Source of the DNA: Mobula hypostoma
Lineage: Eukaryota
NCBI RefSeq assembly: GCF_963921235.1
Contig: NC_086097.1
Span: 4,092,001 to 4,156,000, forward strand
Direction: 5' to 3'
Length of the DNA stretch: 64,000 nucleotides
Every line of letters begins with the position of its first letter. Positions within the stretch are counted from its first letter, which is position 1. The translations under genes and the position numbers were made by a program. The notes beneath the pieces were generated by a model that saw only the letters and a list, made by a program, of their open reading frames with translations, made no database searches and was not told the origin of the DNA. Shown one piece after another: positions 2,601 to 23,576 of this stretch.

Positions 2601-5600
2601 CCATAAGACATAGGAGCAGAATTAGGCCATCTGGCCCATAGAGCCTGCTCCGCCATTCAATCACAGCCTACCATTTTTTTTTACCTCCTCCTCAACCTCA
2701 GTTCCCGGCCTTTTCCCTGTAACCTTTGATACCATGTCCAATCAAGAACCTATCAAGCTCTGCCTTAAGTATACCCAATGGCCTGGCCTGCACAGCTGCA
2801 CATGGCAACAAATTCCACAAATTCACCACCCTTTGGCAAAAGAAATTTCTCTGCATCTCTGTTTTGAAAGGGCACCCCTCTATCCTGAGGCTGAGACCTC
2901 TTGTCCTTGACTCGCCCACCATGGGAAACATCCTTCCCACATCTACTCTGTCTAGGCCTTTCAAAATTTGAAAAGTTTCAATGAGATCACCCCTCATCCT
3001 TCTGAATTTAGGCAAGTACAGACCCAGAGCCATCAAATGTTCCTTGTATGATCATCCTTTCATTCCTGGAATCATCCTTGTGAAGCTTCTCTGGACCCAC
3101 TCCAATGTCAGTACACTTTTTCGAAGATGAGGGGCCCAAAACTGTTCACAATACTCAAGTTGAGGCCTCACCAGTGCCTTATAAAGCCTCAGCATTACAT
3201 CCTTGCTCTTGTATTCTAGATCTCCTGAAATGAATGCTAACATTGTATTTGCCTTCCACACCACTGACTCAATCTGCAAATCAACCTTTAGGGTGTTCTG
3301 CACAAAGACTCCCAAGTCCCTTTGCATCTCAGATTATTGGATTTTCTCCCTGTTTAGAAAATAGTCTGCACATTTACTTCTACTACTACAGTGCATGACC
3401 ATGCATTTTCCAACATTGTATTTCAATTGCCACTTTCTTGCTCATTCTTCTAATCTGTCTAAGTCCTTCTGCATCTTACCTGTTTCCTCAGTACTACTTG
3501 CCCCTCCACCAATCTTTGTATCATCTGCAAACTTAGCAACAAGGCCATCTATTCCACCATCTATTCCATCATCTAAATCATTTATATACTGCATAAAAAG
3601 AAGTAGTTCCAATACTGACCCCTGCGGAACTCCACTAGTCACTGGCAGCCAACCAGAAAAGAATCCTTTTATTCCCACTTGCTGCTTCCTACAAATCAGA
3701 CAATGCTCTAACCGTGTTAGTAACTTTCCTGTAATACCGTGGGCTCTTAACTTGGTAAGCAGCCTCATGTGTGGCATCTTGTCAAAGGCCTTCTGAAAGT
3801 CCAAATACACAACATCCACTGCATCCCCTTTATCTATCCTACTTGTAATCCCCTCAAAGAATTCTAACAGGTTTGTTAGGCAAGATTTTCCCTTAAGGAA
3901 ACCATGCTGACTTTGTCCCATCTTGTCCTATGATACCAAATATTCCATAACCTCATCCTTAACAACTGAGTCCAACACCTTCCCAACAACTGAGGTCAGG
4001 CTAACTGGTCTATAATTTCCTTTCTGCTGCCTTCCTCCTTTCTTAAAGAGTGGAGTGACATTTGCAATTTTCCAGTCCTCTGGCACCATGCCAGAGTCCA
4101 ATAATTTTTGAAAGATCATTTCTAATGCCACCACAATCTCTACCGCCATCTCTTTCAGAACCCTAGGGTGCTTAAGGTAAAAGAACCATTAGAAACCAGT
4201 TCATCCGGTTCAGGTGACCTATGTACCTTTAGGTCTTTTTAGCTTTCTGAGCACCTTCTCCCTTGTAACAGTAACTGCACTCACTTCTCTTCTTTCACAC
4301 ACTACAACATCAGGCATACTTCTAGCATCTTCCACAGTGAAGATTGATGCAAAATGCCAGAGTCCAATGATTTTTGAAAGATCATTACTAATAATTCCAC
4401 AATCTCTACCGCTACCTCTTTCAGAACCCTAAGGTGCAGTTCATCTGGTCCAGATCACTTATGAGTAACTGCACTCACTTCTCTTTCCTCATACCCTTCA
4501 ACACCTGGCGCACTGCTGGTATCTTCCACAGTGAAGACTGATACAAAATACTCATTTAGTTCATCAGCCATCTCCTTGACGCCCGTTATTATTTCTCCTG
4601 CCTCATTTTCTAGCGGTCCTTTATTTACTCTCATTTCTCTTTTATTTTTAACATACTTGAAAAAACTTTTATTATCCACTTTGATATTATTTTCTAGCTT
4701 GTTTTCATATTTCATTGTTTCCTTTCTGATGATTTTTTGCTCTCTGTAGGTTTTTGAAAACTTCCCAATCCTCTATCTTCCCACTAATTTTTGCTTTGCT
4801 GTACACCCTTTCTTTTGCTTGTACAATAGCTTTGACTTCCCTTGTCACCATGGTTGTACTGTTTTACCATTTGAGTATTTCTTCATTTTTGGAATATACA
4901 TGTCCTGCACCTTCCTTATTTTTCCCAGAAAAGCACGTCGTTGCTGCTCTGCGGATATTCCTGCCAGCAGCTCCTTCCAATCTACTTTGGCCAACTCCTT
5001 TCTCATACCAATGTAATTTCCCTTACTCCACTGAAATACTGCTACATCAGACTTTACTTTGCCCCTATCAAATTTCAAGTTGAACTCAATCTCATTGTGA
5101 TCACTGGTTTCTAATGGTTCTTTTACCTTAAGCTCCCTAATCGCCCCCTGTTCATTACATGACACCCATTCCAGTATAGCTGATCCCCTAGTAGGCTCAA
5201 CAACAAACTGCTCTAAAAAGCTATCTCTTAGGCATTCAACAAACTCACTCTCTTGGGATCCATTACCAACCTGATTTTCCCGTTCAACCTGCATGTTAAA
5301 ATCTCCCTTGACTACCATAATGTTGCCCTTTTGACACGCCTTTTCTATTTCCTGTTGTAATCCGTGGTCCACCTCCCAGACACTGTTGGGAGGCCTGTAT
5401 ATAACTGCCATCAATGTCCTTTTACCCTTGCAGTTTCTTAACTCAAACCACAAGGATTCAACATCTTCTGATCCTATGTCACATCTTTCTACTGATTTGT
5501 TGCCATTTATTACCAGTATAGCTACACCACACCCTCTGCCTACCTTCCTATCCCTCCAATTTAACGTGTAACCTTGGACGTTCAGCTCCCAATTACAACC

Positions 5601-14475: not shown

Positions 14476-17400
14476 ATCCAGTTGCTGTGGTCCATGTGGG
14501 TCCCAACAATATAGGTAAAATGAGGAAAGAGATTCTGCTGAGGAAGTTTGAGCAGTTAGGGACTACATTAAAAAGGAGAACCAAAAAGGTGGTAATCTCT
14601 GGATTACTACTTTAGCCATGTGCAAATTGGTATTGGGTCAGGAAGCTTAGAGAGTTAAATGCGTGACTCAAGGATTGGTGTGGGAGAAGTGGGTTTGACT
14701 TCATGGGAAAATTAGCACCAGTATTGGGGAAGGGGGGAGCAGTACCAATGGGACGGGCTCCACCTGAACTGTGATGGGATCTGGATCCTACAAAATCACA
14801 TAATTAGGGCTGTGGACAAGGCTTTAAACTAAATAGTCGGGGGGTGATTTCAACAGATTGGAGAAATAAAGTAAAAAAGAAAAGTGTGGATAAAGATAAA
14901 GAAAAAGCAAAAGGTAAAAAAAGAGAAAAGTAAGAGTGGGGTGAAGAAAAGTTAAGTGCAAAAGAGTAAAAGCTTACAAGATTTTAAAAGCACAATGAGT
15001 GTAAATGCACTTTATTTGAATGCCTGTAGTATTCAAAACAAACTCAGTGAACTTGTGGGCACATATCAGTACAATGGGGTATGATTTAGTGGCCATTACA
15101 GAGATGTGGTTGCAGGGTGGGGAAGACTGGGAAGTAAATATCCAAGGATATCAGGTAATATGGAAGGATAGGCAGGACGGTAATGGAGGTTGGGTGGTGT
15201 TCTTAATTAAAGATGAAATCAGGGTGATGATGAGAGATGATATAGGATCTAAGGAGCAGAATATTGAATCCATCTGGGTAGAGATTAGGAATAGTAAAGG
15301 GAAAAAATCACTGTGGGAGTTGTTTGTAACATTACAGTGCCACAGGAAATAAACAAAGAAATATCTGAGGCACGTAAGAATGGAACAGCAGTTATCATGG
15401 GGGACTTTAACTTGCTCATAGCTTGAGAAAATCAAGTTGGTCGAGGTAGTCTTGAGGACTTCATAGAATACATCTGTCATCGCTCTCTCGGACATCATGT
15501 TACTGAACCTACAAGGGAATGTGCTACTTTAGATCTGGTCCTGTGCAACGAGACAGGTAAAATTAGTGATCTTGTAGTTAGGGATCCTCTTGGAAAGAGT
15601 GATCACAGTATGACTGAGTTTCTCATACAAATGAAAGGTGCAACAGTTTGATCTTAAACCAGTGAATTATGCCTAAACAATGGAGACTACAATGGGATGA
15701 GGGAGGATTTGGCTAGTGTAGACTGGGAACACAGACTATATGGTGGAATAGTTGTGGAACAGTGGAAGACTTTCAAAGAGATTTTTCACGGTGCTCAACA
15801 AAAGTTAAAAGCAGTTAAATGCTAGGACAGTGAGGGTGGGGAGAGCCAGCCTTGGATAACTAAGGAAATAAAAGAAGGCATCAAATTAAAAGTTGGTGTG
15901 TTGAAAGTCACCAAGAATAATGGGAAACTGGAAGATTGGGAAAACTTTAAAAAGCGACAAAGAGCCACTAAGCAAGCAATAAAGAAAGGGAAGCTAGATT
16001 ACAAAAATAAACCAGCACAAAATATAGAAACAGATAGTAAAAGTTTTTATAATTATATAAAGCGTAAAAGGGTGGCGAAAGTGAACATAGGTCCTTTGGA
16101 GGATGAGAAGGGATTGATATTAGGTAATGAGGAAATGGCAGAGACTTTGAATGACTTTTTTGTGTTGGTCTTCATGGTGGCAAACGTGTCTAACATGCCA
16201 AAGAGAGATGTTATGGTTGTGATGGGAGATGAGGGCCTCAAGACAATAGCTATCACTAAAGAGTAGTGCTGAGCAAACTTCTGGGCCTGAAGATAGACAA
16301 GTACCCTCATCATGATGGAATGCATCCCAGTGTACTGAATGAAATGGCAGCACTTACAGTAGAGGCTTTGGTGATAATTTACCAAAATCCTCTGGACTCT
16401 GGGCAGGTCCTAGCAGATTGGAAGACAGCGAATGTTATGCCACTGTTCAAAAAAGTAAGCTGGCAGAAGGCAGGCAACTATAAGTTAGTTAGTTTAACAT
16501 CTGTAGTTGGGAAAATGCTTGAAGCTAATTTAAAAAAGAAATAGTGAGGCATCTGGAAAGAAATGGATCCATCAGGTAGACACCTCATAGATTCAGCAAA
16601 GGCAGCTCCTGTTTGACAAACTTACTGGAGTTCTTTGAGGATATAAGAAACACAGTGGATAGAGGGGAACAGATGGACGTTATTTACTTGGATTTCTAGA
16701 AGGTGTTCGATAAGGCGCCACATAAAAAACTTATTCATAAGATAACGATGCATAGAGTTGGGGGGTGATGTATGAGCATGGATAGAGGATTGGTTAACTA
16801 ATAGAAAGCAGAGTTGGGATACATGGGTGTTTCTCTGGTTGGCAGACGGTGGTGAGCGGGGTGCTGCAGGGGTCGGTGCTGGGCCTGCAACTGTTCACGA
16901 TACATGTTAACGATCTGGAAGAGGGGACTGAGTGTAGTGTATCTAAATTTGCCGATGATACTAAATTGAGTGGAAAAGGAAATTGTGCAGAAGATATGGA
17001 GAGCTGGCATAGTGATAAAGATAGGTTCAGTGAGCGGGCAAGGGTCTGACAGATGGAGTACAATGTTGGTGAATGCGAGGTCACCCACTTTGGAAGGAAA
17101 AATGAAAGAGCAGATTACTTAAATGGTAAAATATTGCAGTATGCTGCTGGGCAGAGGGACTTGGGAGTGGTTGTGCATGAATCACACAAGGTTAGTTTGC
17201 AGGTGCAGCAGGCTATCAAGAAGGCAAATGGAATATTGTCCTTCATTGTGAGAGGGATTAAATTTAAGAGCAGGGCTGTTATGCTGCATCTGTAAATGGT
17301 ACTGGTGAGGCTGCACCTGGAGTACTGTGGGCAGTTCCGGTCTCCTTACTTGAGGAAAGATATACTGGTTTTGGAAGCAGTGCGGAGGAGGTTCCCCACA

Positions 17401-17878
17401 TTGGTTCCAAAGATGAGGGGGTTAGACTATGAAGAATGATTGAGTCTCTTGGGACTGTACTTGCTGGAATTCAGAAGAATGAGAGGAGATCTTATAGAAA
17501 CATATAAAATTACAAAAGGGACAGATAAGGTAGAGATAGGAAAGTTGTTTCTACTGGTAGGTGAGACTAGAACTAGAGGACATAGCCTCAAGATTTGGTG
17601 GTGTAGATTTAGGACAGGGATGAGGAGGAACTCCTTTTCCCAGAGAGTGTTGAATCTGTGGAATTCTCTGCCCAATGAAGCAGTGGAGGCTACCTCAGTA
17701 AATATATTTTAAGATAAGGTTAGATATATTTTTACATAGTAGGGGAATTAAGGGTTATGGGGAAATGGCAGGTACGTGGAGGTGGGTCCATGGCCAGATC
17801 AGCCCTGATCTTATTGAATGGTGGAGTAGGCTCTATGGGCCAGATGGCCTACTCCTGCTCCTATTTCTTATGTTCTTA
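14476..17878 (+). mobile_element. CR1 LINE from ORF1 C-terminus to 3' tail, degenerate
   Basis: VHVGPNNIG and DGLHLN esterase motifs, APE (AITEMWL), RT (KFADDTK), CTTATGTTCTTA tail. Confidence 0.9.
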
Positions 17879-17954
17879 AATACAATGTTGGAAAATGCAT
17901 GGTCATGCATTTGGTAGTAGAAATAAATGTGTGGTCTATTTTATAAATGAAGCG

Positions 17955-18152
17955 TGTACCGTATAGCCTACAGTATAATAAGGGACTACTTTATGTTTTA
18001 GTAACACGTCATTGAATGTGCTATTAGGCGCGTATTGATCTATAGGTGTGTGCCGAGTTCAGTTTCTGCCTGTAAAGAACCATGAACCTTAGTTCCCGTC
18101 TCCAGCATTTTTATTAATAGCATTATTGTGTAACCAGGCCACATACACAACA
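17955..18152 (+). repeat. 5' LTR (198 bp)
   Basis: TGTACCGTATAG...CATACACAACA. About 9 substitutions relative to 22188-22410 by manual alignment; lacks one 25-bp internal repeat unit. Confidence 0.95.
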
Positions 18153-18534: not shown

Positions 18535-18940
18535 ATGGCGATGATCGGAACCATTACAGCATTTGATAGTGGCATTGAAGACTGGGCAACTTACGTTGAC
18601 AGAGTGGAGTTATAGTGTGAGGCTAGCAGTGTTAATGATGGAAAGAAAGCCAGTGTCTCACTCAGTATTATGGGAGCAAAAACATAAACTGGCTGCTATG
18701 GAGCTTGTTAACCCCTGAAAAGCCAGTTGACAAAACATTCAAACAAATAGTAGACACTCTCCAACAGAGTTTAAACCCCAAACCACTGGTCATTGCTGAA
18801 AGATTTAAATTTCACAATTGGAATCAGAGCAAAAATGAAAACATTTCTGAATGTTGTGCTGAATTGTGCAAATTATCAGAATATTGTCAATTTGAAGCTG
18901 GTCTATCGGACGCATTGAGGGACAGGTTAGTGTGTGGCAT
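18535..18940 (+). pseudogene. Gypsy gag N-terminal part, disrupted
   Basis: MAMIGTITAFDSGIEDWATYVDRVEL* then ...PKPLVIAERFKFH...LRDRLVCGI, typical Mag-like gag motifs. Has an internal stop and frameshift. Confidence 0.85.
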
Positions 18941-19002
18941 TGTAACGGGGTCCTGAATTACCCCTATGAACTGTGCTTTTGAAAAGAGAGACATGTTGTT
19001 TT

Positions 19003-19039
<37 letters not shown>

Positions 19040-19100
19040 AAGACTAACTTTTGGACTGTCACTTTAAGGCACAAGAATAACTTTTGGATTTCTGCTGAGT

Positions 19101-19137
<37 letters not shown>

Positions 19138-19220
19138 AGAGGGAGCAAGAGAGAGAGAAGGAGAGGGAGCACCGAGCAGCTTGTAATTTGCTATGGTGAT
19201 CGAGGGCGGCGTTATTTGAT
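18941..19220 (+). mobile_element. Truncated LTR-like insertion from a second element, with (GA)n tracts
   Basis: Starts TGTAACGGGG exactly where gag similarity stops; contains (GA)n at ~19005-19036 and ~19082-19147; no matching CA end seen. Confidence 0.5.
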
Positions 19221-19649
19221 GCCCCACCTCCCCCTCGTACCCCATCCGTTATTTATTTATAAACACACATTCTTTTTCTCTCTCTCATTTTTCTCCTTGT
19301 CCCTCTCACTATACCCCTTGCCCATCCTCGGGGTTCCCCCCGCCTTTTCTTTCTCCCTAGGCCTCCTTTCCCATGATCCTCTCATATCCCTTTTGCCAAT
19401 CACCTGTCCAGCTCTTGGCTCCATCCCTCCCTCTCCTGTCTTCTCCCATCATTTCGGATCTCCCCCTCCCCCTCCCACTTTCAAATCTCTTACTAACTCT
19501 TCCGTCAGTTAGTCCTGACGAAGGGTCTTGGCTGAAACGTCGACTGCACCTCTTCCTATAGATGCTGCCTGGCCTGCTGCGTTCACCAGCAACTTTGATG
19601 TGTGTTGCTTGAAATTCCAGCATCTGCAGATTTCCTCGTATTTGCGTTT
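19221..19649 (+). mobile_element. Penelope-like element terminal repeat / 3' UTR with hammerhead motif
   Basis: Reverse-complement match to 28371-28800, beginning at the base after that element's stop codon. Confidence 0.9.
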
Positions 19650-19875
19650 TCTCACATACCTCTGAAACGAACTAAACTACTGCTAAAGGCTTACACAGGA
19701 CAGAAAGTGCATCCCAAAGGTAAAATTAAAGTGACAGTGACCTACGGAGACGAAACACAGCAGCTTAACCTCTATGTACTGAAAAACAGAGGACCACCGT
19801 TGCTGGGACGGGAATGGCTCAGGAAAATCCAGTTGGATTGGCACACCATCAAGGCACTAGATGTGTTAACAAAGG
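19650..19875 (+). pseudogene. Gypsy aspartyl protease C-terminal half
   Basis: [23 protein letters not shown]...[16 protein letters not shown], with the LLGRxWL retropepsin motif. The catalytic DTG half is missing upstream. Confidence 0.85.
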
Positions 19876-19895
19876 AGGGCAGCTTGGCAGGGAAG

Positions 19896-20553
19896 ATGTC
19901 CACAGCTCTTCTCTCACCCATTGTCGACTATTACAACGACGAGGAGGAGCTAGACATCATCGACAATGAGGATGAACGCAGTATCCGTGGCCGTGACTCA
20001 GATGAAGGTATAGAGGATGCAGGTGAGACAGATATTGCCAATAAGCAGGATGATGAAGACTACCTGGAAATAAAAGAGCAGATGTACCAGGAGAAATTGA
20101 CATCTCTCAAAATACAGCTACAGCAGTTACAGGAAGGCACTTTGCAGGAGTATCAGAAAAAGATGAAGAAACTAGATCAACAATACTGTATAAGAAAAGA
20201 ATATGAAATGCAGAGCTTTTTCTGCAACTGAAGACAGAACAAGTGGAAAGGAATTATATTAAACAGAAGAAAGCAGCAGTGAAGGAATTTGAAGATAAAA
20301 AGATTGAGTTAGAAGAAAAGAAAAAGATGATTGAGAATGAGAGGCTAATAATGGAAATCACAGGAGATTCTATGGAGGTAAAGTCAATAACAACTAGGAA
20401 ACTAAGGAGGAGACCTAATGACCCTGTTCCAATTACAGACAAAAGACAAAAACCTGCACCTGCGCAGTTAAATTACTTGTTCACAGATGAACAGATAATG
20501 GAAGACCTGCGAACTGTCAATAAGCTTAAATCTTCGAAAAGACCAACATCTTC
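19896..20553 (+). pseudogene. SUDS3: Processed SUDS3 (Sin3A-HDAC subunit SDS3) retrocopy, 5' part
   Basis: MSTALLSP...KEQMYQEKL...[24 protein letters not shown]...[19 protein letters not shown]...[13 protein letters not shown]...[24 protein letters not shown], matching recalled vertebrate SUDS3 with no introns. Has a ~5-bp insertion frameshift and TGA near 20185-20204, and an 8-codon deletion. Confidence 0.95.
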
Positions 20554-21504
20554 ATTCAAACAGAACAGCTTTCGCACAAGGTAAATCTGGAACCAATTGT
20601 TTCCTCCATTGAGAATTATTCACTTCATCCTTTGCAGGAAAGTTTCTTTTGCACGTACATATTTTGAATCCTCAGCCAATGTGTCTTGTTTTTCACAAAG
20701 AAGTTGGGAAACAGCATCAGAACAGAGGCGAATTCTGGCAACAAACTGTAAGGTTTATATTGTTGTATTTTCACACTTGTGCTGAATGTGCACCTGAAGG
20801 AATTCTCCCTCTTGAGCCAGACAGATAGCACTGCAGGTAATCCTTAATATCAGCAAAACTGTACTTTAACAGCAGCTTAAGAACAATGGAACGAACAACA
20901 GGATTTCGATCAACTGCTTCATCGAATGGTGAATGATTACTGATAAAGTACTGATCTTTCTGTGAGTTATTGGTTTGCCCTGACTTTTGAATAACTAGCA
21001 GAGACAGCAGATCACCAACCACTTCTTTGTTGGTGGCAAGTCATCTTTGAAGCAGACCATGGAAACCGAAGCTATGAAAAATGCGTCACACCTCTTGTGA
21101 AATATGACTAATTTTGCTGCAACTTCACTTATTTCTTCTGTTACTGCTGGTACATAATCATCATCTAGAGCAGTACGGCACAGTGGGCAGAGTTGTTGTC
21201 CTGATTCAAGCCACCGCTTTATACATTTTAAACAGTAAAAATGATCACATGGAAGCAGGATGGGATTGTTGAGTTCTCCTAAGCAAATTGTACATTCTTG
21301 CAGATCATACCTGAAGAACAGACATCCTGCACTATTTTTACAGTCCCTGAGGATCTGAACCACAGCCCGAAAGAGCCCTCAGGATCTCACATCAGAGTTA
21401 CTGTTCAAACTCTTTGCAAGTTGACCAGCGTAGAATACAACCTTGTTCTCCAATTTATCATGGATTTCTTTAACTCCCAAAATGATGTGTTCCACAGAAA
21501 GTGA
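20554..21504 (-). pseudogene. RNF213: Intronless RNF213 (mysterin) cDNA fragment spanning the RING domain
   Basis: LSVEHIILG...NSDVRS; CTICLGELNNPILLPCDHFYCLKC...CPLC (C3HC4 RING); VCFKDDLPP; SPFDEAVDRNPVVRSIVLKLLLKYSF; then, in another frame, LQFVARIRLC...[12 protein letters not shown]. All match recalled RNF213. Several stops and frameshifts. Confidence 0.9.
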
Positions 21505-21910
21505 CAGCATCTCCGTTTTCTCCTGAACATCTTCCCAGCACTCCTGTTGAAACACTAGCTCAAAGATATGAAGCACGAATAGAAGATGGAAAGTTATATT
21601 ATGATAAGAGATGGTATCATAAAGGTCAGGCTATCTATTTAAAATCTAAGGAGAATACAAAGATTGACTGTGTAATTAGCTCAGTTGGAACAAATGAGAT
21701 ATGGGTAAGGAAGACAAGTGATAGCACAAAGATGCGTGTATATCTAGGACAGCTGCACAGAGGAGTCTTCATTACACGGAGGCGATCTGCTGCCTAGAAC
21801 TCTTAGCAAGTTGGAGGCGCACATCTTCTTAACTCCCTATGCTCAGAGGTCAACTTTTCATGACTTTTATATGGAAATCTGTATTAAAACAAACAAGTTT
21901 ATTAACAGTC
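21505..21910 (+). pseudogene. SUDS3: Processed SUDS3 retrocopy, 3' part plus partial 3' UTR
   Basis: [13 protein letters not shown]...[18 protein letters not shown]...[20 protein letters not shown]...RRRSAA* (stop ends 21797), then ~110 nt of putative UTR with ATTAAA at 21883 and no poly(A). Confidence 0.93.
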
Positions 21911-21962
21911 ATTACCCAGAGAGGCCGAGAAGATCCCCCCCCCAAGAGACTTGAGTTATAAA
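21911..21962 (+). pseudogene. Extreme C-terminus of Gypsy integrase
   Basis: YPERPRRSPP(K)RLEL*, resembling the RYPxRxRxPPxRL ending of Gypsy pol; slippage in a C-run. Confidence 0.6.
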
Positions 21963-22174: not shown

Positions 22175-22187
22175 AAAAGGGGAGGAG
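22175..22187 (+). promoter_or_regulatory. Polypurine tract
   Basis: AAAAGGGGAGGAG directly abutting the 3' LTR. Confidence 0.9.
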
Positions 22188-22410
22188 TGTACCGTATAGC
22201 CTACAGTATAATAAGGGACTACTTTATGTTTTAGTAACACGTCGTTGAATGCGCTATTAGGCGCATATTGAGCATGCGCTATTAGGCGCGTATTGATCTG
22301 TAGGTGTGTGCCGAGTTCAGTTTCTGCCAGTAAAGAACCATGAACCTTAGCTGCCGTCTCCAGCGTTTTTATTATTAGCATTGTTGTGTAACCAGGCCAC
22401 ATACACAACA
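22188..22410 (+). repeat. 3' LTR (223 bp)
   Basis: Direct copy of the 5' LTR with an extra 25-bp unit GCGCTATTAGGCGCATATTGAGCAT. Confidence 0.95.
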
Positions 22411-23576
22411 AAGAGAAAATCCAAAAATCTGAGATGCAAAGGGACTTGGGAGTCCTTGTGCAGAACACCCTAAAAGTTGATTTGCGGGTTGAGTCAATGG
22501 TGAGGAAGGTAAATACAATGTTAGTATTCATTCCAAGAGATCTGGAATACAAGAGCAAGGATGTGATGCTGAGGCTTTATAAGGCACTGGTGAGGCCTCA
22601 CCTTGAGTATTGTGAACAGTTTTGGGCTCCTCATCTGAGAAAAGATATGCTGGCATTGGAAAGGGTTCAGAGGAGGTTCACAAGGATGGTTCCAGGAATG
22701 AAAGGGTTATTATACGAGGAATGTTTGTTAGCTCTAGATCTGTACTCACTGGAATTTAGAAGGATGGGGTGGGGTGGGAGGACCTCACTGAAACCTTTCA
22801 AATGTTGAAAGGCCTAGGCCCTAGATAGTGTAGATGTGGAAAGGATGTTTCCCATGGTAGGGGAGTCCAGGACAAGAGGACACAGCCTCAAGATAGAGGA
22901 GAATCCATTTAGAACAGAGATGTAAAGAAGTTTCTTTTGCCAGAAGGTGGTGAATATGTGGAATTTATTATCAAGGGCACCTGTGGAGGCCAGGTTGTTG
23001 GGTGTATTTACAGAAGAGCTTGATAGGTTCTTCATTGGACACATCATCAAAGGTTACAGGGAGAAGTCCGGGGAGTGAGGCTGTGGAGGGGAGAAAAGAA
23101 TCAGCCAGGTCTGGATGGCTGAGCAGACTCAATGAGCTAATTGGTCTAATTCTGCTGCTCTGTCTTATGCTCTTATCCTTTATTGATCCCAAAGGAAATT
23201 ACAGGGTCACAGTAGCATTGTGCACAGATAAACAAATATTCAAATATTAGAAGAGAAGTAAGAAAGAATAAAAAAACAAATTACCTCAAATAGTCTAACA
23301 GGAGGGTGTCATCACTTCCCCGGCTATAGGTTGACTCATTACAGAGCCTAATGGATGAGGGTAAGAATGACCTTGTATTGCACTCTTTGGAACAGCGCAG
23401 TTGTCTTAGTCTGTTACTAAAAAGTGCTCCTCTGATCAGCCCAGGTGTTATGCAGAGAATGTGAATCATTGTCCGGAATTGACACTTGTGAAATCAAAAA
23501 AACATGATCCTCACAGTGCTGGCAGAGCAGACTTGATGGGCCAAATGGCTTAATTTTGCTCCTAAGTTTTATAGTC

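Follow-up and report, generated by a model that had tools for sequence, protein, structure and literature searches.

An antisense fragment of RNF213 cDNA within SUDS3-carrying LTR retrotransposons of Mobula hypostoma

Processed pseudogenes of the LINE type, which arise by target-primed reverse transcription, consist of spliced cDNA with a flanking duplication of roughly 7-20 nt and a 5' truncation with microhomology, priming taking place on poly(A) at a T-rich nick site. Target-primed and break-repair insertions typically show microhomology at either end as well. Capture of host mRNA by LTR elements is already known as well. In LTR-mediated retroposition as described by Tan et al. 2016 (PMC5131818), the fusion points display microsimilarity with a median of 6 bp, and several genes can combine in one chimera; an element that is interrupted but otherwise continuous is taken as a sign of insertion into a pre-existing copy. 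The maize element Bs1, cited in the same article, is an LTR element that carries parts of three cellular genes. Template switches in retroviruses produce deletions, insertions and duplications, and a model of plus-strand recombination exists (PMC3187697).

The locus described here lies in a 64,000-nt stretch of DNA from Mobula hypostoma (NC_086097.1, 4,092,001-4,156,000; hereafter the window, to which all coordinates refer) and is a decayed copy of a non-autonomous LTR retrotransposon with SUDS3 cDNA in place of pol. The parts of the element follow the order LTR, gag, protease remnant, cargo, polypurine tract, LTR, with neither reverse transcriptase nor integrase among its content; the absence of pol together with the presence of the SUDS3 cargo appears to fit a replacement of element sequence. 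The 5' LTR (17955-18152, plus strand, 198 nt, TG..CA) and the 3' LTR (22188-22410, plus strand, 223 nt) form a direct repeat with 94% identity, the latter containing a 25-nt tandem duplication that is absent from the former. The target-site duplication reads AAGCG before the 5' LTR (17950-17954) and AAGAG after the 3' LTR (22411-22415), a match in 4 of the 5 positions. The polypurine tract, AAAAGGGGAGGAG (22175-22187, plus strand), directly precedes the 3' LTR in the window as it does in two other copies, L029 and L030. The gag-like remnant (18540-18940, plus strand) is kept in other copies; in L029, this region yields matches below the Pfam threshold (Retrotrans_gag, 0.075; zf-CCHC, 0.036). 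The following stretch (18941-19645), composed of (GA)n runs and a SINE-like repeat, is specific to this copy (other copies do not align to it) and replaces about 550 nt that elsewhere encode the gag zinc knuckles and the start of the protease. Positions 19480-19650 recur at other loci outside the element, and the summed contig depth there is extreme. The protease-like remnant (19646-19876, plus strand), with which the retroelement coding sequence ends ahead of the cargo, is conserved across copies; it gave sub-threshold matches and no significant family in Pfam, and upstream in L029 a DTGS motif was found by eye.

The SUDS3 cDNA is split in two. The first part (19877-20543, plus strand) comprises about 20 nt of the 5' UTR and the coding sequence up to ..KRP, and the second part (21505-21908, plus strand) resumes with ASP.. 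and runs to the stop codon at 21795-21797 and through about 110 nt of the 3' UTR, without poly(A). A search of the PDB identifies SDS3 in both parts (chains 4zqa, 2n2h and 7sxi; 4.6e-18 with 4zqa for the first part and 4.8e-41 with 7sxi for the second), whereas in Pfam the Sds3 family falls just under the cut-off (24.4 vs 25.4 bits) and no other family is matched. SUDS3 contigs that resemble mRNA start to match the window at 19877 and match it to 21899-21908, after which they diverge. The parental SUDS3 gene was not located in genome searches, which were swamped by element copies; insert-less copies and the mRNA-like contigs served as the reference in its place. The proposal that SUDS3 continues across the insert with no sequence lost is borne out by these references. 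At least 200 genomic matches to the uninterrupted SUDS3 motif were found, compared to 0 for the reversed control, and spliced contigs link 20543 directly to 21505 in 3 of 4 sequencing runs (presumed RNA). Among the pieces listed from the same 4 runs, there were no contigs bridging the SUDS3/RNF213 junctions in the form present in the window.

The sequence that separates the two parts is a spliced cDNA fragment of RNF213, which encodes an interferon-linked E3 ligase, antisense to the element (20553-21507, minus strand, 955 nt). DNA alignment to the RNF213-like gene of the same genome (contig C68) covers parts of 8 consecutive exons, denoted A to H, with 90.4-97.8% identity per exon; from left to right in the window, the order is H to A, with exon H at the left end and exon A at the right end. 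All 7 exon junctions correspond to GT..AG introns of the C68 gene that have been removed precisely, and no intron sequence is present within 20553-21507. At its 3' end, the fragment stops with the final base of an exon that is internal to the mRNA; there is no run of A, and poly(A) is absent from this end both in the window and in the long-form copies discussed below. A frame of 127 aa (20995-21378, minus strand) matches RNF213 chains in the PDB (E = 6.9e-32), among them 9jta_C, an RNF213 chain of 67 residues (4.6e-20), as well as RING families in Pfam (zf-C3HC4_3 with 1.3e-11, residues 27-71), which places the C3HC4 RING finger at 21166-21300 (minus strand). A second frame (20771-21040, minus strand) also identifies RNF213 in the PDB (E = 4.3e-16). 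For the third (21379-21630, minus strand), the PDB search was empty at E <= 0.01, and this frame aligns to a skate RNF213-like protein (P0001) inside a 162-aa stretch with 69% identity; for the RNF213 frames in general, identity to the skate protein is 64-69%. The preliminary description had recognized an intron-less, minus-strand fragment of the RNF213 RING region without poly(A), and this assignment holds in every part: the fragment extends beyond a single exon, contains no intron sequence, and its best matches are RNF213. The notion that it is an assembly chimera, or not RNF213 at all, is hardly credible and is contradicted by the occurrence of the same junctions on dozens of contigs, the PDB and Pfam matches, and the exon-by-exon correspondence.

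The insert-bearing SUDS3 cDNA, first described as a retrocopy, does not stand alone: it belongs to a subfamily of at least 83 copies, which itself lies within a family that includes at least 200 copies lacking the insert. A genome-wide search with 35-mers, allowing up to 3 mismatches, detected 34 short left junctions and 49 long left junctions (hence the figure of at least 83) and 33 right junctions, with 0 matches for all reversed controls; the uninterrupted motif was counted under a stricter mismatch limit. The first DNA search produced 41 matches with 89-100% identity, including the copy in the window itself, and 156 first-look candidates, and the same architecture and junctions were seen at 19 of the 19 other loci of that search. 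Copies without the insert, which had been proposed as the place to look, show the same element with uninterrupted SUDS3 at 10 of 10 loci examined and additionally at L052. Acquisition of the RNF213 piece was a single event in an element that already spread with SUDS3 on board, and the resulting double chimera went on to transpose as one unit. The subfamily with the insert was mobilized as an LTR element, as shown by the 5-bp target duplications around insert-bearing copies (4 of 5 positions in the window and 5 of 5 in L030, where the duplication is perfect, ATCTC/ATCTC). A tree of the left flank (900 nt, 27 rows, after 9 loci with alignments shorter than 600 nt were dropped) is star-like, with end branches of about 0.045, and draws no line between insert-bearing and insert-less copies, speaking neither for nor against a single clade of the former, so that it is the shared junctions that argue for the single origin. 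The SUDS3-carrying family fills about 0.04% of the genome and has no LTR or gag DNA in common with an RBM25-carrying element.

The edges of the insert in the window are two 10-mers, CAACATCTTC on the left (20544-20553, plus strand) and CAGCATCTCC on the right (21505-21514, plus strand), which had been interpreted either as microhomology to RNF213 or as a decayed target-site duplication. The first interpretation fails since both 10-mers belong to SUDS3 only. The second is right in that the duplication is real: among the 34 short-junction copies listed, 20 have precisely CAGCATCTCC as their left 10-mer. It requires amendment in that the 10-mers do not mark the primary junction. The right 10-mer opens the right copy of a duplicated SUDS3 target and shares its initial 3 nt, CAG, with the end of RNF213, and the left one is the decayed left copy, which directly adjoins the scar of a 79-nt deletion. 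Other copies read CAGCATCTCC followed immediately by ATTCAAAC at the left junction, and the long-form copies retain there 12 nt more of the duplication and 67 nt more of RNF213 than the window does. In these older copies, 22 nt of SUDS3 are duplicated on either side of an insert of about 1,153 nt; 12 nt of the duplication are unambiguous, and 7 + 3 nt are shared with RNF213. The true microhomology resides in this ancestral arrangement, with 7 nt, CTCCTGA, common to SUDS3 and the end of RNF213 exon H (the last base of which is reached) on the left, and 3 nt, CAG, common to SUDS3 and RNF213 on the right. The base that follows CTCCTGA is G in 95 of the 100 insert-less SUDS3 matches listed and A in RNF213; in the 49 long junctions, it is A in nearly all and G in one.

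Comparison of the copies indicates that the junction in the window is secondary, a 79-nt microhomology deletion having left the 10-mers as a remnant of the 22-nt duplication. The 124-nt gap inside the RNF213 fragment is secondary as well: breakpoint alignment places its scar across the exon F/G junction at 20817-20820 (minus strand), with CTGG microhomology, and copies L045 and L047-L050 retain the F/G sequence in full and correctly spliced. The originally noted size of about 950 bp is correct for the copy in the window (955 nt), but it is a derived state of a founder insert of about 1,153 nt. Three short-repeat deletions trimmed the insert in this family, namely 79 nt on the left (TCCAT repeat), 124 nt in exons F/G (CTGG repeat) and about 740 nt on the right, the first two of which are present in the window. 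The F/G deletion is common to forms B and C of the insert and the right deletion to forms A and B, both of which are devoid of the RING half, and the breakpoints are identical. Given several microhomology deletions and their reticulate sharing among the forms, replication of the family is prone to template switching. A founder-type copy, with the long left junction, intact F/G and the full right side, was not encountered among the 49 family copies examined besides that of the window; three loci that combine a right junction with no listed left junction (L041-L043), where it was sought, contain two other rearrangements and one nested insertion. Three weak protein matches that could have signified an extension of RNF213 past exon H are better read as long-form junctions, and one of them coincides with a match of the long-junction pattern at C9:15978012.

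The founder shows microhomology together with a duplication that resembles that of a target site, and so the two mechanisms originally offered, a microhomology-guided template switch and an insertion with target-site duplication, both have their signature in it and are not cleanly separable. We consider it moderately probable that reverse transcriptase switched to RNF213 mRNA during plus-strand synthesis and came back 22 nt upstream. Under this scenario, reverse transcription of the element would be in progress inside a virus-like particle, where the end of the plus-strand DNA, ...CTCCTGA in SUDS3, would anneal to the complementary UCAGGAG with which an RNF213 exon ends in a co-packaged spliced mRNA. 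About 1.15 kb of the RNF213 mRNA would then be copied, from exon H back into exon A, and the return to the minus-strand DNA of the element would take place via the 3-nt CAG match 22 nt upstream of the exit point, so that 22 nt of SUDS3 would be duplicated. In later replication cycles, the short-repeat deletions trimmed the insert, and recombination shuffled them. The antisense orientation of RNF213 follows from the nature of the insert, about 1 kb of cDNA from the first strand made on the transcript of the host's RNF213-like gene, inside sense SUDS3. The H-to-A polarity, which matches the direction in which a DNA strand with its primer at the left junction would copy the mRNA, speaks for this explanation, as do the microhomologies at the two ancestral junctions, CTCCTGA (left) and CAG (right), and the switch-prone replication of the family. 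Furthermore, a switch inside the particle would by construction put the insert into the cDNA that transposes, whereas cDNA inserted at random into the genome would seldom hit an active source copy of a family that occupies so small a part of it. The explanation is weakened by the lack of any element loss and by the 22-nt duplication, which together resemble a target-site duplication, and by the right-junction match of 3 nt, which is weak on its own. In addition, plus-strand switching onto mRNA is unusual, the capture described in the literature consulted being minus-strand and resulting in the sense orientation; plus-strand capture of a host mRNA is our inference and does not appear in the available text of PMC3187697.

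The main competing account of the same junctions is insertion at the DNA level, which we regard as possible but rather unlikely. Here, the SUDS3 sequence of an integrated element would be nicked, or broken with staggered ends, leaving a 3' end, ...CTCCTGA, from which RNF213 mRNA would be reverse-transcribed, whether by an enzyme of the LINE type supplied in trans or in the course of break repair; the copy that was hit would later become the source of the subfamily, and the 22-nt duplication would be a true target-site duplication. An element that is interrupted yet otherwise continuous, with a flanking duplication in the 15-22-nt range, is compatible with such an event, and Tan et al. (PMC5131818) use this kind of interruption to recognize sequence that was inserted into an element already in place. 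The H-to-A polarity suits target-primed synthesis equally well, and LINE fragments are abundant around the element in the window. However, poly(A) is missing from the fragment, whose 3' end lies within the mRNA; no T-rich sequence marks the break site, ...CTCCTGA/G, the primer end being ...TCTTCTCCTGA and the template site an internal exon end; and the family contains many other rearrangements of the reverse-transcription type. The insertion would also have had to strike a family of such limited genomic share and, within it, the very copy that gave rise to at least 83 progeny. The duplication itself is the same structure under either explanation, given that a template switch that returns upstream also generates 22 repeated nucleotides.

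A route through the minus strand, in one or the other of two forms, is improbable. RNF213 mRNA might have been reverse-transcribed first within the particle, with the minus strand of the element switching to that cDNA and back; alternatively, a free piece of cDNA might have been assimilated into discontinuous plus-strand DNA, in agreement with the strand-displacement-assimilation model outlined in PMC3187697. The junctions and microhomologies used would be identical, and no sequence feature sets this route apart from the plus-strand switch, but it demands an extra step, independent priming on RNF213 mRNA.

The RNF213-bearing elements share several features with the chimeras of Tan et al. (PMC5131818) as far as these are described in the available text: a piece of host mRNA is flanked on both sides by one element with two LTRs, the fusion points show microsimilarity (7 and 3 nt here, compared to their median of 6 bp), the mRNA is partial and without poly(A), more than one parental gene contributes to a chimera, and the product is a non-autonomous element that multiplies further. 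They differ in that the host piece in those chimeras replaces element sequence without duplication, whereas RNF213 is an insertion with a 22-nt duplication, and in that RNF213 lies inside a previously captured gene, in antisense, in at least 83 copies; antisense capture was not found in the available text of Tan et al. 2016 (PMC5131818), and the accessible part of PMC3726574 contains no mention of the orientation of captured genes. Similarly to maize Bs1, which is a plant element (PMC5131818), this is a non-autonomous LTR element with serial cargo from multiple genes that continued to transpose. Retroviral template-switch products, as presented in the parts of PMC3187697 at hand, include short-repeat deletions, insertions, duplications and recombinants of co-packaged genomes, along with the plus-strand recombination model, and the forms observed here agree with each of them, the difference being that the retroviral products involve viral templates and the present ones a host mRNA. 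With LINE-type pseudogenes, the RNF213 piece shares spliced cDNA, a flanking duplication in the 15-22-nt range and truncation on the 5' side with microhomology; unlike them, it lacks poly(A), has its 3' end at an internal exon end, lies at a site that is not T-rich, and occupies as its target the interior of an LTR element that was later amplified. Among the papers listed by a literature search on RNF213 with retrotransposons and pseudogenes, none concerned RNF213 fragments in mobile elements.

What the family adds is an unusually complete fossil series that consists of the SUDS3-only progenitor (at least 200 matches), the doubly chimeric derivative, the ancestral junctions, the deletions and the recombinants. 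The second capture departs from the described pattern, being antisense and inserted with a 22-nt duplication instead of replacing element sequence, and this points to plus-strand template switching or target-primed insertion into a source copy, both of which are poorly documented in nature. Taken by itself, the RNF213 capture is an unusual, probably functionless by-product of sloppy reverse transcription. Most likely, the insert today has no function and is a passenger that would be carried as antisense RNA by any LTR-driven transcript; if so, its value is modest, that of a clean worked example of reverse-transcriptase errors.

Nevertheless, the family also offers a concrete case in which to test whether a gene of innate immunity can be disseminated in antisense by a mobile element across the genome of a vertebrate. 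The cargo might have been kept and spread because putative antisense or small RNA lowers RNF213 expression, which would be compatible with any capture mechanism; the loci, at least 83, would then be a putative LTR-driven source of antisense RNA, piRNA or siRNA against RNF213, acting as counter-defence or as a co-opted host regulator. We deem both the selective explanation and this role very improbable. They draw on the number of dispersed copies that hold about 1 kb of RNF213 antisense with about 93% identity downstream of an LTR, and on germline piRNAs from retrotransposons and pseudogenes, which according to PMC4352877 regulate mRNAs. Moreover, 3 of 4 runs (presumed RNA) yield contigs in which RNF213 antisense is joined to the SUDS3 3' UTR (21063 to 21831), and these runs also contain contigs of spliced SUDS3 and RNF213 mRNA. 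By contrast, insert-less copies are more numerous than insert-bearing ones even under the stricter mismatch limit, much of the insert was lost repeatedly while the spread continued, as in forms A and B, and, as judged from the end branches of the tree, decay of the copies keeps step with that of their flanks.

The minus strand between the two 10-mers, which lie where the preliminary description had placed them (CAACATCTTC at window 20544-20553, CAGCATCTCC at 21505-21514), encodes an RNF213-type protein in three shifted frames. A Protein Data Bank search started with the frame 20995-21378(-) identifies RNF213 chains with an E-value of 6.9e-32 over 120 residues that include the RING, and the same frame matches RING-finger Pfam families at about 1e-11; the frame 20771-21040(-) likewise matches RNF213 (4.3e-16). 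The third frame, 21379-21630(-), had no match in the Protein Data Bank search and falls within a 162-residue stretch that aligns with 69% identity to a skate RNF213-like protein, P0001, the only one of 29 candidates to pass (E-value 4.2e-50). In the 3.48-Gb genome, the part of P0001 just beyond the fragment led to the parental gene, which is RNF213-like and lies on contig C68 at about 48.83 Mb. Aligned with 30 kb of this gene, the fragment resolves into eight separate blocks (exons A to H, with H at the left end) of 90.4-97.8% identity that cover window 20553-21507, and all seven gaps between the blocks are genomic introns with GT..AG ends; thus, the fragment derives from a spliced mRNA. One of its ends lies inside exon A, and there is no poly(A). 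The earlier description of an intron-less antisense RNF213 RING cDNA is borne out: the single exon, the intron sequence or the best matches outside RNF213 that had been named beforehand as grounds for rejecting it are not what the fragment presents. A second, weaker and more distant RNF213-like locus is present on the same contig (G000:C68:41296520-41303872, about 41.30 Mb; 43-57% identity to the skate protein).

The element that carries the fragment has a 5' LTR (17955-18152) and a 3' LTR (22188-22410, preceded by a polypurine tract) that are 94% alike, and is bounded by a 5-bp target duplication (AAGCG/AAGAG). Its interior contains gag-like and protease-like remnants followed by SUDS3 cDNA at the position of pol; the SUDS3 flanks of the insert match solved SDS3 fragments (4zqa, 4.6e-18; 2n2h, 7e-08; 7sxi, 4.8e-41). 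At window 20304, SUDS3 mRNA-like contigs of three sequencing runs contain 24 extra bases, matched by 8 additional residues in the sequence of the mouse SDS3 structure; the SUDS3 of the element therefore lacks 8 codons, which were probably either deleted or spliced out of the captured mRNA. The 3' LTR contains a 25-nt tandem duplication (gcgctattaggcgc.tattga, window 22250-22300) that is missing from the 5' LTR. Window 18941-19645 is made up of (GA)n runs and a SINE-like repeat; the corresponding region of other copies is gag zinc-knuckle and protease sequence of about 550 nt. The SINE-like part (~19480-19650) is also present outside the element in several loci, and the contig depth summed over it in the sequencing runs is enormous. 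Coding fragments of the C-terminus of a LINE-type reverse transcriptase are found on both sides of the element (17150-17880 and 22413-23180) and appear to represent two different copies rather than one interrupted copy.

A genome DNA search with the fragment (156 first-look candidates, 40 scored) yields at least 41 matches including the window's own copy, the others being 89-94% identical, and all 19 other loci fetched have the layout protease, SUDS3, antisense RNF213, SUDS3, LTR. The left junction occurs in a short form, that of the window, and a long form: six of the seven partial-query matches in this search (L024-L029) have the longer junction or variants of it, and the seventh, L030, has the short one. 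Genome-wide 35-mer matches with up to three mismatches number 34 for the short left junction, 49 for the long one and 33 for the right junction (reversed controls all 0). With at least 83 insert-bearing copies in a dispersed family, the event is not confined to a single locus. The insert-bearing copy L030 is flanked by a perfect 5-bp target duplication, indicating that the doubly chimeric element moved as an LTR element. The proposed search for copies without the insert was also productive: a 35-place motif for the uninterrupted SUDS3 site, with up to two mismatches, has at least 200 matches genome-wide (reversed control 0), in all ten insert-less loci fetched the element is the same and window 20551/20555 continues directly into 21505, and a copy 1.08 Mb from the window is another insert-less family member. 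The RNF213 piece therefore joined an element whose multiplication with SUDS3 had already begun.

In the long junction, SUDS3 sequence ...GACCAGCATCTCC(A/G)TCTTCTCCTGA is followed by ACAATTTCCTTGGG..., the terminal 74 nt of exon H in antisense orientation, to the final base before the GT donor. Given that the short form could not acquire sequence of the parental gene, the long form is the older one. It has 22 nt of SUDS3 (CAGCATCTCC-NTCTT-CTCCTGA) on either side of the insert, the final 7 nt of which are common to RNF213 and SUDS3 (8 if the template was spliced to the next exon). The base after these 7 nt marks the end of SUDS3: 95 of the 100 insert-less matches listed have G, and RNF213 has A, as do nearly all of the 49 long junctions (one has G); at the right junction, the overlap is CAG only. 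The left junction of the window arose from the long junction through the loss of 79 nt between two TCCAT repeats; of these 79 nt, 12 belonged to the duplication and 67 to RNF213. Of the 34 short-junction copies listed, 20 retain exactly CAGCATCTCC as the left 10-mer, and that of the window has two later transitions. The 10-mer pair is thus real, pure SUDS3 and the remnant of a duplication; the ancestral junctions speak for neither of the two earlier explanations over the other, as they show both a duplication that resembles a target-site duplication, originally of 22 nt rather than 10 bp, and microhomology (7 nt and CAG), which the 10-mers do not have.

The fragment also has an internal gap of 124 nt that takes in the junction of exons F and G and has CTGG at each break point. 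Both exons are complete and correctly spliced in five long-form copies (L045, L047-L050), so that the gap is secondary and the founder insert would have been about 1,153 nt (955 + 74 + 124). Three forms can be distinguished. Form A (5 loci) has the long left junction, intact F/G and a right deletion from 21193 to 21937; form B (7 loci, two with further changes) shares the long junction and the right deletion and has F/G deleted; form C, that of the window, combines the short junction, the F/G deletion and a full right side, and is found in 19 of the 20 loci L002-L020 and L030, L002 having lost the junction. Rearrangements of individual copies include the joining of window 18476 to 20558 in L002, a deletion of its own at the left junction in L025, and an LTR end joined to window 21257 in L041 and L043. 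None of the long left junctions among the genome-wide 35-mer matches coincides with a right junction, so that a copy of the founder type is absent from this set. The F/G deletion has the same breakpoints in B and C, as has the right deletion in A and B; the simplest explanation for this crosswise sharing is recombination between co-packaged RNAs. In a maximum-likelihood tree computed from 900 nt of left flank (27 rows, after exclusion of 9 loci with short alignments), the copies form a star with end branches of about 0.045 and only one well supported fork; insert-bearing and insert-less copies do not separate in it and seem to have spread in one burst.

A correctly spliced sense mRNA is represented in the plus strand of the element by its first-strand cDNA, and the left-to-right order from exon H to exon A implies that priming took place at the left junction and that the plus strand copied the mRNA. 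We favor, with restrained confidence, a plus-strand template switch onto RNF213 mRNA co-packaged in the virus-like particle. Nascent plus-strand DNA with the 3' end CTCCTGA would have paired with UCAGGAG of this mRNA, copied about 1.15 kb of it, and rejoined the minus-strand DNA at CAG, 22 nt upstream of the first switch. The microhomology at both junctions, a family history that includes switch-type deletions and recombination, and the agreement with LTR-mediated retroposition (PMC5131818) and retroviral template switching (PMC3187697) in the published descriptions drawn on here all support such a switch, as does the rarity of a productive source copy as a target for random genomic insertion (the family makes up about 0.04% of the genome). 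It is weakened by the pattern in the relevant parts of Tan et al. (PMC5131818), where captured sequence replaces element sequence without duplication, and an interrupted but continuous element is a sign of insertion into a pre-existing copy. Accordingly, the main rival is target-primed or break-repair insertion into a genomic element copy, in which case the 22 nt would be a genuine target duplication; this rival would leave the same sequence as the template switch, and we consider it rather unlikely. A variant route, with minus-strand synthesis switching onto RNF213 cDNA, appears quite improbable. In the ancestral form (window 20553), the RNF213 piece starts exactly at the last base of exon H, with the GT donor next in the gene (L024, L026, L027, L029 and L049, around locus 205-285 or 3920-4000). 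Only about 1 in 20 random breaks would be expected to lie this close to an exon end (within 8 nt), so that the template may have been an RNA with its 3' end at the end of exon H, e.g., a splicing intermediate.

We read the RNF213 piece as a passenger because its copies and their flanks decay alike, the spread continued despite the loss of large parts of the insert, and insert-less copies outnumber insert-bearing ones. Transcripts driven from the LTR would carry RNF213 antisense. In four sequencing runs aligned to the window, the RNA nature of which is a guess, spliced SUDS3 contigs join 20543 to 21505 (three of the four runs), and RNF213 mRNA-like contigs include the 125 nt missing from the window. 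Low-depth contigs that join RNF213 antisense (21063) to the SUDS3 3' UTR (21831), again in three of four runs, hint at the existence, and possibly the transcription, of related chimeric copies in several organisms.

The closest known kind of event, as far as it is described in the parts of PMC5131818 considered here, is LTR-mediated retroposition, with multi-gene chimeras that still transpose, and the SUDS3 cargo fits this description. The RNF213 capture departs from it in three ways, being antisense, an insertion with duplication rather than a replacement, and located inside an earlier cargo; the basic kind is already known. An RBM25-carrying LTR element (L051, G000:C1:5773500-5777600) has no LTR or gag DNA in common with the SUDS3 family; hence, at least two unrelated LTR families of this genome captured host mRNAs.
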